From: Chitinimonas arctica
GTDB taxonomy: Bacteria > Pseudomonadota > Gammaproteobacteria > Burkholderiales > Chitinimonadaceae
DNA: 32,000 nt
Direction: 5' to 3'
Assembly (NCBI RefSeq): GCF_007431345.1
Contig: NZ_CP041730.1
Location: 163,651-195,650 of the forward strand
Shown: positions 19,587-32,000 of the stretch, in pieces
How positions within the stretch are numbered: position 1 is the first letter of the stretch
Layout of the letters: the number at the start of each line of letters is the position of its first letter
Notes under the pieces: model-generated
Seen by the model: only the letters and a program-made list of their open reading frames with translations
Told to the model about the DNA's origin: nothing
The model's database searches: none
Position numbers and translations under genes: made by a program

Positions 19587-20132
19587 TCACACGCCTGATG
19601 AAGGATTCTGGCCTGTCACCCCCGCCCTGACCTCAAATTCGACTGTCTCCAAACGCTCGCGCAGCACTGTCTGCTGGTGGCTGAGATGCACCCGGCTCAA
19701 TACAGCCTGCCCCGCCAGCGCATCCAGATAAGCCTCCAGGGCGCGGCGATCGCGCGCCTCGCCGCGCAGGATCAGTTGGCGGCTGGTCTTGTCGGGTTGG
19801 AATTCGAGTAACTCCACATCGGCTTTGCCTGCCCGTTCGATGGCCAGGAAGACCTCCGGCCACGGGTATTCGCGCTCGGCCTGCAGTGCCGCCCATTGTT
19901 TTTGCGTACGTTGCAATGCCTTGTCGTCCACCGGCTTGGCAGCGCGGCGCTGCTGGACTTGCAGCCTTTCGCTCCGGGCGGCGAGCTGTTCGGTGCGCGC
20001 AGCGGTTTGATAGGCGTCCTGCGCCAGCCAGGCCGCGCCGATCAGCAGCACGGCGACCAGCAGCCACAGCCAGCCGGCATGGCGCAGCGGCGGACGAAGA
20101 TAAGGGCTAAGCGGGTCCATATTCATTGCCAT
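19587..20132 (-). CDS. PilN/GspM-like bitopic assembly protein
   Basis: 181-aa ORF with a single TM (WLWLLVAVLLIGAAWLA), then a coiled-coil, then a ferredoxin-like periplasmic region (VELLEFQPDKTSRQLILRGEARDRRALEAYLDAL). It overlaps the upstream gene stop (ATGGCAATGA). Its position after the GspE and PilM-like genes fits this role. Confidence 0.6.
   Translation of the reverse strand: MAMNMDPLSPYLRPPLRHAGWLWLLVAVLLIGAAWLAQDAYQTAARTEQLAARSERLQVQQRRAAKPVDDKALQRTQKQWAALQAEREYPWPEVFLAIERAGKADVELLEFQPDKTSRQLILRGEARDRRALEAYLDALAGQAVLSRVHLSHQQTVLRERLETVEFEVRAGVTGQNPSSGV
19616..19723 (-). repeat. Copy B of a ~107-nt direct repeat (copy A = 18743-18849)
   Basis: I aligned the two copies by eye. There are long identical runs (e.g. 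GTCTCCAAACGCTCGCGCAGCAC and GTCTGCTGGTGGCTGAGATGCACCCGG), scattered substitutions and one 1-nt indel. Confidence 0.8.
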
Positions 20133-20893
20133 TCGCTGGGGGTAAGGGCTTGCACCACTGCGCCGGGCAGGTTGGCGACGATCTGTTCGGCACGGCTGCT
20201 CGCGTCATCGGTTGCGGCCGACCAGGCGGCGACCTGTTCGATCGCACCGTGCAGGGCAGCCAAACGGCGTAGCAGGCGGGTAGTGGCGGCTTGCGCGTCG
20301 CCGGCTGCGGGTTCCACGTCATAGCCGATCAGGCCGGCGTGGTCGTACAGCAAGGCGGTGCTGCGGCTGGCATCGCCCAGTAGCAGCAGGCGCTTGCCTT
20401 CTCCCGGTGCGCAAGCCGCGCGGTGGTAGATGGCGGCGGACAGTGGCAAGACAGTGCGCAGGCGCAGACCGTGCGCCTGGCACAAGGCCGGCAGTTCGGT
20501 CAGGCAGCCGCGCCGCAACGCATACGCCAGACCCAGCCGACCATGATGACGGAAATCGCTGTGTTGCACCCACTCCCGATCCAGCGGCTGGCCTTGCTGT
20601 TCAAAGCAGGCTTGCGCATAGGCTTCGACCTCGGCCGGCGTCTGTAGCGCCGGCTGCCAGGCGAGCGGCGCCAGGGCCGCCAGGCTGTCCGAGACAGTCA
20701 GCACCAAGCGGCTGCCCGGCCGCCATTGCCCGGTGTGTTCGGTCAACAGCGCGATTAGTTCAGCCAGCAGATCAAGCGGTGCGGGGCTCGGTGCATATTC
20801 GCTCCAGCGCGGCGCGGCGGACCGGCCAAGCTGCAGGCCGCGCCGGCCCGGAAACAGACTGGCGTAGACGGTACTAGGCCACAAAGGTGACAC
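20123..20893 (-). CDS. Putative PilM / GspL-cytoplasmic-domain-like assembly protein (weak call)
   Basis: The frame is continuous with coding-like composition. GTG 20893 (or TTG 20884) overlaps the gspE end. No TM segment is present. Loose PilM/GspL-like blocks are present (RLVLTVSDSLAAL, GLRLRTVLPLSAAIY, KRLLLLGDASRSTALLYDHAGL). The gene sits between GspE and the PilN-like gene. The track start at 21013 lies inside gspE and was rejected. Confidence 0.45.
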   Translation of the reverse strand: MSPLWPSTVYASLFPGRRGLQLGRSAAPRWSEYAPSPAPLDLLAELIALLTEHTGQWRPGSRLVLTVSDSLAALAPLAWQPALQTPAEVEAYAQACFEQQGQPLDREWVQHSDFRHHGRLGLAYALRRGCLTELPALCQAHGLRLRTVLPLSAAIYHRAACAPGEGKRLLLLGDASRSTALLYDHAGLIGYDVEPAAGDAQAATTRLLRRLAALHGAIEQVAAWSAATDDASSRAEQIVANLPGAVVQALTPSEWQ

Positions 20894-22541
20894 GATTGAC
20901 CTCCTGCAATGTGGTCTGGCCGTCGCGCACCCCTTGCAGGGCGACCTCGCGCAACAAGCGGGTGCCTTCGCGGCGGGCCTGCTCCTTGAGGGTGCGCAGC
21001 GAGGCGCGGTCAATGATCATTTCGCGCAGCTCGTCGCTGAGGCACATGACTTCGGCCACTGCCCGGCGGCCTTTATAGCCGCTGCCGCGGCATTGCGGGC
21101 AACCGCGGCCGGCACGGAAGCGGTAGTTCTCCGGATCGGGGATGCCGGAGTCGGCTAATAAGGCGGCATCGAGCTGCTGGTCGGTCACGCAGTGCGGGCA
21201 GTTCTGCCGCACCAGCCGCTGCGCCACCACGCCCGTCAGGGCCGAGACCAGGTGATACGGGTCCACGCCCATATGCATAAAGCGGCCGATAACGTCGAAA
21301 CTGTTGTTGGCATGCACCGAGGTAAACACCAAATGGCCGGTCAGCGCCGACTGCACCGCGATCTGGGCGGTTTCCGCATCGCGGATCTCGCCGACCAGGA
21401 TCTTGTCCGGATCATGCCGCAGGATGGAACGCAGGCCAACGGCAAAGCTGAGGCCCTTCTTTTCGTTGACCGGAATCTGCAGCACGCCGGGCAGCTGGTA
21501 TTCGACCGGATCTTCGATGGTAATGAACTTATCTTCGCCCTGGTTGATCTCGGTCAAGGCCGCATACAGGGTAGTGGTCTTACCGCTGCCGGTCGGACCG
21601 GTGGCCAGCAGCATGCCGTAGGGCGCGGCCGCCAGCCGGCGCAGCACGCGCACGGTATCGGCATCGAATCCCAGCGAATCCAGCGTCAGGCGCTGCACCT
21701 GGTCGATCAGGGCTTGCTTGTCCAAAATCCGCAGCACGGCATCTTCGCCGTGGATGCTGGGCATGATGGAGACGCGGATATCGATATCGCGGCCCTTGGC
21801 GGCAATGCGGAAGCGGCCGTCCTGCGGGATGCGCTTTTCGGCGATATCGAGTTCGGCCAGCACCTTGATACGGGCGATGGCCTGTTCGGCCAGCGCGGTT
21901 TTGTTGACGGTGGCGATGCGGTTCAGCACGCCGTCGATACGGAACTTGATCACCAGGCCTTGCGGGATCGATTCGAGGTGGATATCGCTGGCTTCGCAGC
22001 GCAAGGCATCGAACACGGTCGAGTTGATCAAGCGCACGGCCGGACTGGCCTCGCCCTGGATCGATGCCAGGGTCAGGTCGGCGCTGGCATCGCGCGCCAG
22101 TTCGATGGATTGGTCCAGGCCGACCGCATCGGCCACGGCGCTGAAACCGGCCTCGTGCCGTTCCAGCTCGGCGCGCAGCAGGGCGGGGTCGGCCAGGTAA
22201 AGCGCCGTCAGCGGCAAGGCTTGAGCGGCCAGCCACGGGCCCAGCCGGCTATCCAGCGGCTGGCCGATCGCGGCGCAGAGCCGGCCGGCGGCGTCGTGCC
22301 CCACCAGCAGCACTCTTTCGGCCATGTCGGTGTAGGCCACTTGCGCGAAGTCCGGCTGGAGCGGCCAGCCGGTGGCGCAGTCTAGCGGCGGGTAGGCCAG
22401 CAGGGTGGCGGCCTCGGCCAGCAACGCCTCGCGCGATTGCGGGGAACGCTCGGCCAGCCAGCTCAGCCAGTCGCCGCCGAGGCCGGCGGCTTGGCAGGCC
22501 TGCGTCAGCTCGGCCAGGGTCAGGGGGGCATCAAAGTGCAT
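20874..22541 (-). CDS. gspE: GspE/PilB-family secretion ATPase
   Basis: 555-aa ORF with Walker A (ATGPTGSGKTTT), Asp box and Walker B (KILVGEIRD), His box (TGHLVFTSVHAN), and the tetracysteine CPHC...CPQC motif. Confidence 0.95.
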   Translation of the reverse strand: MHFDAPLTLAELTQACQAAGLGGDWLSWLAERSPQSREALLAEAATLLAYPPLDCATGWPLQPDFAQVAYTDMAERVLLVGHDAAGRLCAAIGQPLDSRLGPWLAAQALPLTALYLADPALLRAELERHEAGFSAVADAVGLDQSIELARDASADLTLASIQGEASPAVRLINSTVFDALRCEASDIHLESIPQGLVIKFRIDGVLNRIATVNKTALAEQAIARIKVLAELDIAEKRIPQDGRFRIAAKGRDIDIRVSIMPSIHGEDAVLRILDKQALIDQVQRLTLDSLGFDADTVRVLRRLAAAPYGMLLATGPTGSGKTTTLYAALTEINQGEDKFITIEDPVEYQLPGVLQIPVNEKKGLSFAVGLRSILRHDPDKILVGEIRDAETAQIAVQSALTGHLVFTSVHANNSFDVIGRFMHMGVDPYHLVSALTGVVAQRLVRQNCPHCVTDQQLDAALLADSGIPDPENYRFRAGRGCPQCRGSGYKGRRAVAEVMCLSDELREMIIDRASLRTLKEQARREGTRLLREVALQGVRDGQTTLQEVNRVTFVA

Positions 22542-31251: not shown

Positions 31252-31253
31252 GA

Positions 31254-32000
31254 TCAAGGCGCGATGGTGAGCGTATGGCGTAGCGGCAAGGCCGGCCGCG
31301 GCAGCGCGGCGCCGGAGCCGACCGGCGACATGCCGACCAAGCCGATTTCAACAGGTGGGCCAGCGAGCAGCGGTTTCACTTCGATCAACAGCAAACTGCC
31401 CTGCCCGCTCGTGCCTGCTCGACTTGGACTGGCCAGGCCGACGGCGATACGGCCGCTGCCGGCATCGACCAGCTGGTTGAAACTGACCGATGTCTTACCG
31501 AAGAAATCGCCAAGCCGTACCGACACCACCTCGACACGGTTGGGATCGAATATCAACTGCATAGGCGCGGCGCGCACGGGGTCGGCGCTGTCCAGTAGCA
31601 AACGCAATTGCACGGTTTCACCGACCTTGGCCTGGGCCGGGCCTTGCCAACGCAGACGTAAGCCGCCGGGCTGCTCGGCTGCGGCGGTCTCGGTCGCCGC
31701 AGCGGCGGGGACCGGGGTGGGAACGGGCGTAGCAGCGGGCGTCACGGCGGCTTCGCTCGTAGCCGGAGCAGGAGCAGGAGCAGGAGCAGGAGCAGGGGCG
31801 GGCAATGCTGGCTTCGGCGCCGCGACCGGCGTCTCCAGGTTGCGCAACTGCAAAGGCTTCAGCCGCAAGCTGGCCTCGGTCCCGGACCAGAACGACTCCG
31901 CCGCCGGCGATTGCCGCTGTAGATTGCGTATCAAGCGCGGCGTGATCGACAGGACGATCTCGGTTTTTTGCTTGTCGTCCTTCTGGCTGGAGAACAAGCG
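31254..32000 (-). CDS. 3' part of a secretin gene: secretin C-terminus, Pro/Ala linker, cohesin-like beta domain (5' end outside the window)
   Basis: The frame is open to the window edge. ...KTEIVLSITPRLI matches the end of secretin domains. Next comes the PA-rich linker (PALPAPAPAPAPAPAPATSEA...). The final ~140 aa (LRLRWQGPAQAKVGETVQLRLLLDSADPVRAAPMQLIFDPNRVEVVSVRLGDFF...LLLIEVKPL) resemble the cohesin domain pattern, recalled and not searched. Confidence 0.6.
   Translation of the reverse strand, partial: RLFSSQKDDKQKTEIVLSITPRLIRNLQRQSPAAESFWSGTEASLRLKPLQLRNLETPVAAPKPALPAPAPAPAPAPAPATSEAAVTPAATPVPTPVPAAAATETAAAEQPGGLRLRWQGPAQAKVGETVQLRLLLDSADPVRAAPMQLIFDPNRVEVVSVRLGDFFGKTSVSFNQLVDAGSGRIAVGLASPSRAGTSGQGSLLLIEVKPLLAGPPVEIGLVGMSPVGSGAALPRPALPLRHTLTIAP
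31765..31794 (-). repeat. (GGAGCA)x5 hexanucleotide microsatellite encoding (Pro-Ala)n
   Basis: Five perfect tandem GGAGCA units on the + strand, lying inside the secretin linker. Confidence 0.9.

Follow-up and report, generated by a model that had tools for sequence, protein, structure and literature searches.

The closest described relatives of the locus analysed here are the 'unorthodox' type II secretion clusters that Ralstonia solanacearum carries on its megaplasmid and chromosome (PMC5080846), which are catalogued without functional data in the literature found. They consist of G, F, E, four 'hypothetical' genes (L-, N-, M-, and P-like), D, and three pseudopilins, and their GspD combines TPR, STN, Secretin_N, Secretin, and Cohesin (81 bits) domains. 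The Geobacter Pul/OxpG system, as summarised in PMC3543383, is an atypical T2SS with experimental support: it has the three pseudopilins PulG, OxpG, and TklG, and secretion of OmpB requires it (Mehta et al., 2006, cited in PMC3543383). It belongs to a different phylum, shows no Rhs linkage, and is compared with the present locus by description. No experimental study of a cohesin-tailed secretin system was found in the literature.

The window, a stretch of 32,000 nucleotides from Chitinimonas arctica, contains one of the copies of a type II-like secretion machine that is self-contained in 11 genes and whose sequence places it in the family listed for Ralstonia solanacearum as 'unorthodox T2SS'. 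The cohesin-tailed secretin system is thus not a new kind, as the same 11 genes have already been catalogued there. The original prediction of a non-canonical T2SS/T4P-type hybrid held up, but the layout turned out not to be unusual for its family: the same genes recur across Burkholderiales in two circularly permuted orders, G-F-E-L-N-M-P-D-pp-pp-pp (pp, pseudopilin) in Ralstonia and M-P-D-pp-pp-pp-G-F-E-L-N in the window. Its caveat that the cluster might match an already characterised system came true in part, although the matching Ralstonia system is catalogued, not characterised. The Ralstonia secretin is 47% identical to the one described here over residues 23-596. The two loci differ in that the Rhs gene lies directly upstream of gspG in Ralstonia and inside the operon here, where the module is also triplicated and has giant SpvB-Rhs and Sel1 genes attached. 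All genes that had been named beforehand were found on the minus strand at the expected positions by an ORF and profile check, with GspG, GspF, and GspE recovered by Pfam and NCBIfam matches:

31254-32000, minus strand: C-terminal part of the secretin (core end, linker, and cohesin)
31839-32000, minus strand: 3' end of the secretin core domain; the gene runs on past the window
31662-31838, minus strand: Pro/Ala-rich flexible linker between core and cohesin, containing PAPAPAPAPAPA (translation)
31257-31661, minus strand: cohesin-fold module of ~135 aa at the secretin C-terminus (Pfam, AlphaFold, Foldseek)
30751-31257, minus strand: minor pseudopilin pp168, G/FSFIE, Glu5 present (N_methyl PF07963)
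30377-30757, minus strand: minor pseudopilin pp126, Glu5 present (N_methyl, 31.7 bits)
29883-30380, minus strand: Glu5-less pseudopilin pp165, G/FSYLV (translation)
29455-29952, minus strand: major pseudopilin GspG (TIGR01710, 167.8 bits, cut-off 88.85; PF08334, 138 bits)
23937-28842, minus strand: inserted low-GC cassette with an Rhs gene and two small genes (GC, copy comparison)
24928-28842, minus strand: Rhs protein of 1304 aa with a Sec signal (RHS_repeat, 218 bits)
24491-24949 and 23937-24494, minus strand: the two small cassette genes
22531-23715, minus strand: GspF-type inner-membrane platform protein (PF00482, 166 bits)
20874-22541, minus strand: GspE-type assembly ATPase (PF00437, 407 bits)
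20123-20893, minus strand: soluble actin-fold protein of 256 aa, equivalent to PilM or cytoplasmic GspL (model and Foldseek)
19587-20132, minus strand: bitopic PilN-like protein (PF05137, 21.5 bits, cut-off 22.8)

With the classical T2SS (Gsp/Xcp/Eps/Pul) the locus shares a GspD-family secretin, GspE, GspF, and the major pseudopilin GspG; its Glu5-less pseudopilin resembles the likewise Glu5-less minor pseudopilin GspK, and the prepilin peptidase is supplied in trans, as in the Pseudomonas aeruginosa T2SS. It departs from the classical system in that two proteins, one PilM-like and one PilN-like, take the place of GspL, GspC, GspH, GspI, and GspJ are not recognisable, and only three small minor pseudopilins are present. 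The secretin has N0 and one N domain instead of N0-N3, a TPR head that is predicted to be lipidated, and a tail formed by the cohesin, but no S-domain. Like the locus, the type IVa PilMNOPQ set has an actin-fold PilM-like protein that is separate from the PilN-like one, as well as a PilO-like protein and a small protein at the PilP position. In that set a TPR lipoprotein (PilF/PilW/Tgl) works with the secretin; here, the TPR lipoprotein is fused to it. Unlike in type IVa pili, the major subunit is of the GspG type and not a pilin, PilT and AMIN domains are absent, and the secretin carries the cohesin tail that PilQ lacks.

Extending the analysis upstream of the window recovered the secretin N-terminus, a PilO/GspM-like gene (PDB-profile match to 3jc8 PilO, E 5.9e-5), and, directly upstream of the secretin, a gene for a protein with a TM segment, a Pro-rich stretch, and a small beta-domain. 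The latter is a candidate PilP/GspC-like protein by position only, and received no support from HMM, PDB-profile, or hhalign comparison. Neither GspC nor a prepilin peptidase had been recognised beforehand; there is now this candidate for the former, and PilD is encoded in trans, adjoining pilBC elsewhere in the genome. The proposed split of GspL was upheld by the structural model of the 256-aa protein (pLDDT 90.4; Foldseek matches to PilM, cyto-EpsL/GspL, and FtsA; no Pfam or NCBIfam match) and, with a weak PF05137 score below the cut-off, by the PilN-like protein, whose Ralstonia orthologue scores 21.6 bits. The N-terminus of the PilN-like protein is short and cytoplasmic, and is followed by a single TM helix, as read from the sequence, and a periplasmic domain. 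Translation of the 256-aa protein probably starts at 20893, since this start agrees with copy 3 of the system and with orthologues. GspF scored 230 bits against TIGR02120, and the ATPase 482 bits against the GspE model TIGR02533 and 447 bits against PilB; these two proteins and the secretin each stayed below the NCBIfam equivalog cut-offs.

The claim of a pseudopilin lacking Glu5 was borne out both here and in its relatives, as position +5 of the pp165 family is V, I, A, G, S, W, or L in 26/26 members and never Glu; Glu5 is present in all orthologues of pp168 (22/22) and pp126 (17/17) in which the motif was found. No Pfam or NCBIfam profile matched pp165, which is a candidate GspK-like pseudopilus cap. 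Several GspG-like paralogues had been proposed: GspG itself lies well above the TIGR01710 cut-off, while pp126 scored 56 bits, under the cut-off of 88.85, and is GspG-like in its N-terminal half only. Translation of GspG probably begins at the ATG at 29886, which makes the protein 143 aa long (orthologues: 139-148 aa).

The full secretin has 791 aa (L009:1905-4280, minus strand) and consists of a lipobox (LGGC, read from the sequence), TPR repeats, STN/N0, Secretin_N, and Secretin domains (Pfam on the whole protein), followed by the Pro/Ala tether and the cohesin. It is thus predicted to be a lipoprotein in its own right, with a TPR module at the N-terminus, which would readily explain the absent S-domain. 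HxcQ of Pseudomonas aeruginosa is reportedly a liposecretin; such secretins have their own N-terminal lipobox, as seen here, which by analogy would imply self-piloting without an S-domain or pilotin. To my knowledge HxcQ has neither a TPR module nor a cohesin, unlike the secretin described here.

The secretin tail is a genuine cohesin. It matched Pfam Cohesin PF00963 with 34.5 bits (E 2.8e-8, cut-off 24.1), its AlphaFold model reached a pLDDT of 93.1, and the top 50 Foldseek matches in the PDB were all cohesins (TM 0.63-0.81). The predicted fusion of the secretin through a Pro/Ala linker to a cohesin-like domain was therefore confirmed by translation, profile, and model alike. Known cellulosomal and non-cellulosomal cohesins (PDB 2xdh, 2jh2, 3ul4, 1aoh) have the same nine-strand jelly-roll fold (TM 0.72-0.81) but a sequence identity of just 10-21%, and the module here differs from them in being fused to a Gram-negative secretin in a genome without dockerin. 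The model begins with low pLDDT in the linker, which could not be aligned between paralogues. In solved secretins, the C-terminus with its S-domain is found at the periplasmic face of the barrel, and the S-domain binds an inner-leaflet lipoprotein; this topology would place the tethered cohesin in the periplasm.

Five such systems are encoded in the Chitinimonas arctica genome, and that of the window is one of three near-identical copies, which are ~96% identical outside the segment of cohesin and adjacent pseudopilin genes and 98-100% identical in the secretin core. Within this segment, dS between paralogues is 0.35-0.94, compared with 0.04-0.15 elsewhere; it is an older, diverged island. The dN/dS of the cohesin module between paralogues (0.18-0.20) indicates purifying selection. 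One paralogous system (~653-662 kb) has a 644-aa secretin without cohesin, and the module is therefore dispensable in some versions.

Base composition and copy comparison both mark the Rhs cassette as an insertion: its GC content is 50-56%, against 63-69% in the flanks, and it is absent from the sister copies, in which gspG and gspF abut (copy 3) or are separated only by a homologue of the 152-aa gene (copy 2). A 2866-aa Big_7-SpvB-FG-GAP-TcdB-RHS protein is encoded upstream, and its N-terminus and that of the 1304-aa Rhs protein are both signal-peptide-like. Giant SpvB/RHS proteins flank the system in 3/3 annotated loci and all three copies in Chitinimonas arctica, Rhs-like genes lie within ~20 kb in 11/27 loci, and all Rhs cores of two genomes, G192 (2/2) and G011 (3/3), adjoin the system. 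Four genomes (G092, G062, G197, and G053) have the cohesin-secretin system and no Rhs core anywhere, and in G004 and G116 none of the 13-15 Rhs cores adjoins the system. Rhs proteins are consequently not the general cargo of the family, nor is the cohesin an Rhs-specific receptor. An independent preprint links Rhs families of Ralstonia and Xanthomonas to gspG and predicts their export by a T2SS (10.1101/2025.05.08.652813). The secretin channel may be too narrow for a folded YD-shell.

The best overall explanation, to which I assign a probability of roughly 0.6, is a type II-like secretor with the cohesin as a docking site and linked Rhs proteins as cargo. A short GspG pseudopilus, powered by GspE and capped by the Glu5-less pseudopilin as by GspK in classical systems, would drive Sec-exported periplasmic proteins through the secretin, and PilD from elsewhere in the genome would process the pseudopilins. 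The protein encoded upstream of the secretin would join platform and secretin, like PilP or GspC, and the lipid anchor and TPR module would replace a separate pilotin, again accounting for the missing S-domain. The cohesins, one per subunit, would sit on their tethers in the periplasm around the barrel and dock a non-dockerin partner, either cargo or assembly factor. In Chitinimonas arctica, the likeliest cargo would be the linked signal-peptide-bearing Rhs/YD-shell toxins, i.e. the 1304-aa and 2866-aa proteins.

The original prediction had instead suggested that the cohesin tethers a partner or substrate at the outer membrane. On this reading the module would be exposed there and hold a dockerin-bearing protein in the manner of a cellulosome. 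The reading has the genuine cohesin fold in its favour, but the proposed genome search for a partner found no Dockerin_1 match anywhere in the complete Chitinimonas arctica genome while its controls were positive, which leaves classical cohesin-dockerin tethering unsupported; given also the periplasmic S-domain of solved secretins, it is highly doubtful. The missing dockerin would suit a cohesin that is not a cargo receptor but a structural or assembly element replacing the S-domain, which could bind peptidoglycan, a pseudopilin, the lipidated TPR of an adjacent secretin subunit, or some other part of the envelope and thereby stabilise or position the multimer. Its retention in genomes without Rhs and without a common neighbouring cargo gene, the purifying selection, and the finding that among the paralogues it and the neighbouring pseudopilin genes have diverged as a single older segment are in line with such a role, although a single recombination tract over adjacent genes explains the co-divergence equally well, characterised cohesins bind separate partner modules, and the same genome holds a secretin of this family that lacks the module. 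I consider this role possible, if tentative.

Regarding the cargo, the chance is not far short of even that the Rhs genes do not encode it but belong to mobile polymorphic-toxin cassettes that tend to land beside or inside the cluster, and that the machine secretes other, unlinked proteins. The low-GC, inserted cassette that the sister copies lack, the four Rhs-free genomes, the distant Rhs genes of G004 and G116, and the ~18 Rhs-like regions in Chitinimonas arctica, most of them away from these systems, all fit this view. Against it, at least six families show this adjacency, some genomes have Rhs genes solely beside the system, the separate Ralstonia/Xanthomonas study arrived at the same link, and the linked Rhs proteins have Sec-type signal peptides and not T6SS-type PAAR/VgrG-linked N-termini. 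It is unlikely that the machine, in place of secreting proteins, assembles a type IV-like or MSHA-like surface pilus that serves adhesion or uptake. The PilM/N/O(/P)-like platform, a secretin with just N0 and one N domain that matches the PilQ model TIGR02515 end to end (171 bits), and the resemblance of its TPR lipoprotein module to the T4P pilotins PilF, PilW, and Tgl would agree with a pilus; however, the major subunit exceeds the trusted cut-off as a bona fide GspG, the ATPase matches the GspE model better than the PilB model, the secretin reaches only 112 bits against the MshL model (cut-off 250), and the 11-gene unit has neither a PilT-type retraction ATPase nor a large pilin or adhesin gene.

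The preferred secretion machine is a common design in betaproteobacteria. The cohesin-tailed secretin has more than 4,500 homologues, named 'cohesin domain-containing protein' in RefSeq, and the module was found in 29/201 sampled genomes of the order (22/116 genera), with nearly all sampled matches falling in open frames of 750-975 aa. Profiling the gene order, as had been suggested, showed that the 11-gene synteny is kept in Undibacterium, Duganella, Chitinimonas, Massilia, Burkholderia, and Ralstonia, and in ~20 further genomes.

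The type II-like machine encoded on the - strand of the window proved to belong to a family that is already known: it is catalogued in Ralstonia solanacearum as an 'unorthodox T2SS' (PMC5080846), and public annotation labels its domains, with RefSeq naming the secretin homologues 'cohesin domain-containing protein' or GspD. All genes listed in the original prediction were present on that strand. The novelty claimed there was overstated, as the same 11 genes make up the Ralstonia-type system and their order recurs in other genera. In Ralstonia CP016613.1, tblastn and annotation recovered the 11 genes, including four small unnamed genes between gspE and gspD, and Pfam assigned a TPR head and a cohesin tail to the secretins of both systems. 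The gene order in the window is a circular permutation of that in Ralstonia. Across 27 loci, the order G-F-E-L-N-M-P-D-pp-pp-pp was found in most families, and M-P-D-pp-pp-pp-G-F-E-L-N in the window and its nearer relatives (L, N, M, and P are PilM/GspL-like, PilN-like, PilO/GspM-like, and candidate PilP/GspC-like genes, D is the secretin gene, and pp are pseudopilin genes); in Undibacterium terreum, Duganella sp., and Chitinimonas sp., the annotated loci show a gene order identical to that of the window. I hold the assignment to a Ralstonia-type T2SS-like machine with much higher confidence than the mechanistic reading given further below, and the window locus is a permuted, triplicated, and Rhs-laden form of the catalogued family. 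The features referred to in the following are these, with genome positions given for the C. arctica contig (G000:C1):

Window 30751-31257, - strand: pp168, minor pseudopilin
Window 30377-30757, - strand: pp126, minor pseudopilin
Window 29883-30380, - strand: pp165, minor pseudopilin
Window 29455-29952, - strand: GspG
Beyond the window, directly upstream of the secretin gene: P-like protein, 190 aa, containing a single TM helix and a Pro-rich stretch and ending in a small beta-rich domain
Beyond the window, upstream of the P-like gene: M-like protein, 176 aa, bitopic, Pfam T2SSM_b at 28.9 bits
Genome 183-211 kb (copy 1, the window copy), 991-1014 kb (copy 2), and 1431-1450 kb (copy 3): three modules, about 96% identical
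Genome 653-662 kb (secretin 644 aa, without cohesin) and 925-934 kb: two diverged systems, order G-F-E-L-N-M-P-D-pp-pp-pp, no Rhs neighbour
Genome 202159-210759, 1005549-1014173, and 1441637-1450270: giant proteins of 2866-2877 aa, one upstream of each near-identical module

More than 4,500 secretin homologues were present in the protein collection, most of them with a Cohesin domain, and the closest named ones came from Chitinimonas. Of 201 genomes sampled within the order, 29 carried the cohesin module, and these came from 22 of 116 genera; outside the order, it occurred in only two of the genomes sampled elsewhere in the class. When plasmid records were searched at the protein level, 110 of them placed the system on the R. 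solanacearum megaplasmid; the gene order in strain FJAT-91 is Rhs, GspG, GspF, GspE, four hypothetical proteins, GspD, two GspG-like proteins, and a further hypothetical protein, and the 754-aa GspD carries TPR, STN, Secretin_N, Secretin, and Cohesin domains. Betaproteobacteria of soil and water carry the family widely, and it is also found in a plant pathogen, R. solanacearum, where it has long been listed under its 'unorthodox' label.

The description of the machine as non-canonical held when its parts were scored against known machine types. GspG was a true GspG by NCBIfam (TIGR01710, 167.8 bits against a cut-off of 88.85), and a GspG major pseudopilin is common to the classical T2SS and the window system. 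GspE reached 482 bits against an equivalog cut-off of 630, GspF 230 against 424, and GspD 178 against 351; by these scores all three are family members below the equivalog level, with family membership clear for GspE and GspF. No HMM match at cut-off to GspC, GspH/I/J/K, single-chain GspL, or GspM was obtained for the system genes, including those upstream of the window. Of the parts originally reported as missing, GspC and GspH/I/J thus stayed unrecognised by HMM, and the prepilin peptidase was found in trans, as the sole strong PilD of the genome adjoins pilB and pilC at 1.84 Mb. The upstream DNA, suggested as the place to look for the rest of the system, yielded the whole secretin (791 aa) and the M-like gene, and for the P-like gene a candidate only. 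With the upstream parts and PilD found, the system is therefore complete, comprising 11 genes plus PilD in trans. Of the parts of a type IVa pilus, only some were matched: PilM at the fold level, PilN at 21.5 bits (below cut-off), and PilO by profile, with no match for PilP; the PilQ model scored 171 bits against 284 on the secretin. The major subunit is GspG rather than a pilin, and the 11-gene unit encodes no second ATPase and hence no PilT for retraction. An MSHA-type pilus or a known Gsp variant had been named as possible matches; MSHA membership was rejected (TIGR02519, MshL-type, 112 bits against 250), and the match to a known system was found in the Ralstonia catalogue. The same genome also carries a classical T2SS, a T4aP, and a candidate MSH-like cluster; the last, at about 1.99 Mb, holds a GspE/PilB-like ATPase, a GspF-like protein, and a secretin.

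Among the minor pseudopilins, pp168 and pp126 have a prepilin motif with Glu5, which was kept in 22/22 and 17/17 of the respective orthologues with the motif found. The short pseudopilin without Glu5 was correctly predicted: pp165 reads G/FSYLV, and Glu5 was absent from 26 of 26 family members among the collected orthologues with the motif found, so the missing Glu5 is a family trait. GspK of the classical T2SS likewise lacks Glu5. The proposal of a split PilM/PilN-type GspL also stood, by a fold match for the L-like protein and a weak PilN match for the product of the next gene. The L-like gene likely starts at a GTG at 20893, which would give 256 aa, in agreement with copy 3 and with orthologues of 254-261 aa. 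Its product had no match in Pfam, NCBIfam, or PDB sequence profiles, and 31 of 31 database homologues are labelled 'hypothetical'. Its identity came from the fold search only, in which the model (pLDDT 90.4, actin-like fold) was closest to PilM (5eou, 2ych, 3jc8), cytoplasmic EpsL/GspL/PulL (1yf5, 4pht, 5tkw), and FtsA. The PilN-like protein has a short cytoplasmic N-terminus and one TM helix, and its sub-cut-off PilN score of 21.5 bits is accompanied by 21.6 bits for the Ralstonia orthologue. GspL function may therefore be divided between the L-like and PilN-like proteins, for which 'split GspL' is a fair description, with the L-like part placed at the fold level. The M-like family profile matched PilO of Myxococcus (3jc8, E 5.9e-5) and Pseudomonas (2rjz), and hhalign matched it to the genome's own PilO (74%). 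The P-like protein is a candidate PilP/GspC equivalent on the basis of its position and shape; the family had no match in PDB profiles, none of its 23 members matched Pfam, and hhalign against this genome's T4P, T2SS, and MSH operon proteins gave no match.

The full secretin, whose N-terminal part is encoded beyond the window edge, begins with a signal peptide and lipobox, which about four TPR repeats follow; STN/N0 and a single Secretin_N domain precede the secretin core, and a linker joins this core to the cohesin. In the translated window fragment the linker is a Pro/Ala stretch preceding the module at the C-terminal end. The original claim of a cohesin-like C-terminal module was borne out by both HMM search and structural modelling. 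PF00963 (Cohesin) scored 34.5 bits on the window fragment against a gathering score of 24.1, 40-44 bits on the other three cohesin-bearing paralogues of the same genome, and 81 bits on the Ralstonia orthologue (Pfam). An AlphaFold model of the last 144 secretin residues, with an alignment of 41 homologues as input, reached a pLDDT of 93.1, and its best 50 PDB matches in Foldseek were all cohesins, both cellulosomal and non-cellulosomal (TM 0.63-0.81, identity 7-21%, E down to 2.6e-8). I take the cohesin jelly-roll fold seen in this model to be real. Within this genome Cohesin is confined to four of the five secretins of the 11-gene family (Pfam), and Dockerin_1 (PF00404) had no match at E <= 0.01 across the complete genome, with matches obtained in control genomes; the docking mode that had been suggested lacks a partner of this kind here. 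Among the paralogous copies the cohesin had a dN/dS of 0.18-0.20, which indicates purifying selection, and the module therefore has some role. A cargo dock and a structural element are both possible, each at somewhat worse than even odds. Literature searches that paired cohesin with secretin, GspD, or type II secretion turned up no paper that mentions a cohesin on these secretins and none that tests the system.

The S-domain of solved secretins is C-terminal; it sits external to the barrel, at its periplasmic side, and contacts there a pilotin whose anchor is in the inner leaflet. Because this known topology puts the C-terminal domain in the periplasm, tethered cohesins should make a periplasmic skirt round the pore rather than be displayed on the surface. 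At the other end of the protein, the N-terminus reads LLGLGG/C, a lipobox as is common to liposecretins; a consensus LAGC was retained across the alignment of 41 secretin homologues, and lipobox and TPR head were both conserved among them. By analogy with PilF, PilW, and Tgl as TPR lipoproteins or pilotins, the lipidated TPR head plausibly stands in for a separate pilotin, which would explain the absent S-domain.

Several loci linked the machine to Rhs proteins. In the window copy, a 1304-aa Rhs protein with a signal peptide is inserted between gspG and gspF, and the giant protein adjacent to the window carries Big_7, SpvB, FG-GAP, TcdB_midN, and RHS repeats (Pfam) together with an Rhs core (NCBIfam). 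Giant SpvB/RHS proteins flanked the system in 3/3 annotated loci (U. terreum, Duganella sp., Chitinimonas sp.), Rhs-like genes lay within about 20 kb of the system in 11 of 27 loci, and Rhs cores stood beside the system in the sampled genomes G192 (2/2), G011 (3/3), and G029 (1/2). Four further genomes with the system (G092, G062, G197, G053) had no Rhs core anywhere, and G004, from the same genus as the window genome, and G116 had 13-15 Rhs cores with none adjoining the system; the link is therefore real but facultative. The Rhs-less loci, searched for a universal cargo, had no other neighbour gene in common, and a comparison of three Rhs N-termini revealed no similarity outside the RHS repeats and hence no shared targeting domain. 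The cohesin cannot be a receptor specific to Rhs. For the machine in this genome Rhs is a plausible cargo, though not the one that defines the family, and that Rhs proteins are cargo of the machine in this genome is put forward tentatively. A 2025 preprint, independent of the present analysis, tied gspG to one Rhs family in Ralstonia and one in Xanthomonas and predicted export of these proteins by T2SS, which it called unconfirmed (10.1101/2025.05.08.652813).

The three giant proteins look like TcB-TcC fusions, and their N-termini resemble signal peptides; identity among them is 90-100% along most of the chain and <25% over the last ~200 aa, as polymorphic toxin tips would show, and each is followed by small candidate immunity genes. 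The Rhs protein adjoining gspG in Ralstonia FJAT-91 (L064, megaplasmid DNA, 2647-7626) has a Peptidase_C39-like domain near its N-terminus (24.4 bits), a domain otherwise typical of bacteriocin-processing exporters.

The complete genome (5.29 Mb) holds five systems of the 11-gene family, and the three close copies differ from each other in a confined segment. Secretin residues 1-600 are 98-100% identical among them, and linker and cohesin of the window copy have only 30-74% identity to the sister copies. In DNA, the segment from gspG to the end of the cohesin (window 29455-31809) shares 80-87% identity with 995894-998338 and 1435579-1437833, with flanks at 95-97%; one breakpoint of this island falls within the secretin gene, at the boundary between secretin domain and linker. 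A reading as positive selection on the cohesin was rejected, since dS there is also about 9-fold higher: dS was 0.28-0.94 across the island (about 0.9 for the cohesin and 0.28-0.65 for the pseudopilin genes) and 0.04-0.15 for gspE, gspF, the M- and P-like genes, and the secretin core. The raised dS indicates a segment that is older or imported, not fast-evolving, and suggests that it was either spared by homogenising gene conversion or replaced by recombination. It is tempting to regard cohesin and pseudopilins as a specificity cassette; adjacency alone fits the pattern equally well.

Overall, I favour the reading that the machine exports Sec-delivered proteins in a T2SS-like, pseudopilus-driven manner, with the cohesin as dock and Rhs as the likeliest cargo here (probability about 0.6). 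A further-reaching version is unlikely; in it, a periplasmic cohesin ring would be the cargo receptor for a non-dockerin ligand, the family would be a contact-independent T2SS-type route for Sec-dependent Rhs/YD-shell toxins including giant SpvB-TcdB-Rhs proteins, and the diverged cohesin-pseudopilin cassette would set cargo specificity for each paralogous machine. Cargo selection by type II machines is a long-standing open question, on which a docking domain tethered to the secretin offers a concrete handle. The linkage to signal-peptide Rhs proteins and Tc-like BC fusions fits the recent proposal that some Rhs toxins exit by type II and not by type VI secretion, which, if true, would shift the reading of their ecology from contact-dependent to diffusible.

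Some smaller features of the loci were also recorded. A Sel1-repeat gene after the PilN-like gene (window 17632-18693) is broken into two ORFs, one of 102 and one of 227 aa, and is intact (345 aa) in copies 2 and 3. Copies 1 and 2 encode a second Sel1 protein, of 929-965 aa, ahead (upstream) of their M-like gene, and Sel1 genes beside the system were seen in no other genera. Between the PilN-like and Sel1 genes, a low-GC DUF416 gene (18897-19502; region 18737-19502) is inserted, on the far side of which tblastn found 30 codons that duplicate the 3' end of the PilN-like gene at 87% identity (genome 182387-182476). Window 15979-17298, at a low-GC operon end, encodes a 439-aa Trypsin_2 protein with a lipoprotein-like N-terminus and three partial homologues elsewhere in the genome. 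Downstream of the Rhs toxin, a 152-aa gene (within window 23937-24949) has a 50%-identical homologue that stands alone between gspG and gspF in copy 2 (995451-995870), which could be an orphan immunity gene or what is left of an Rhs cassette that once occupied this site.
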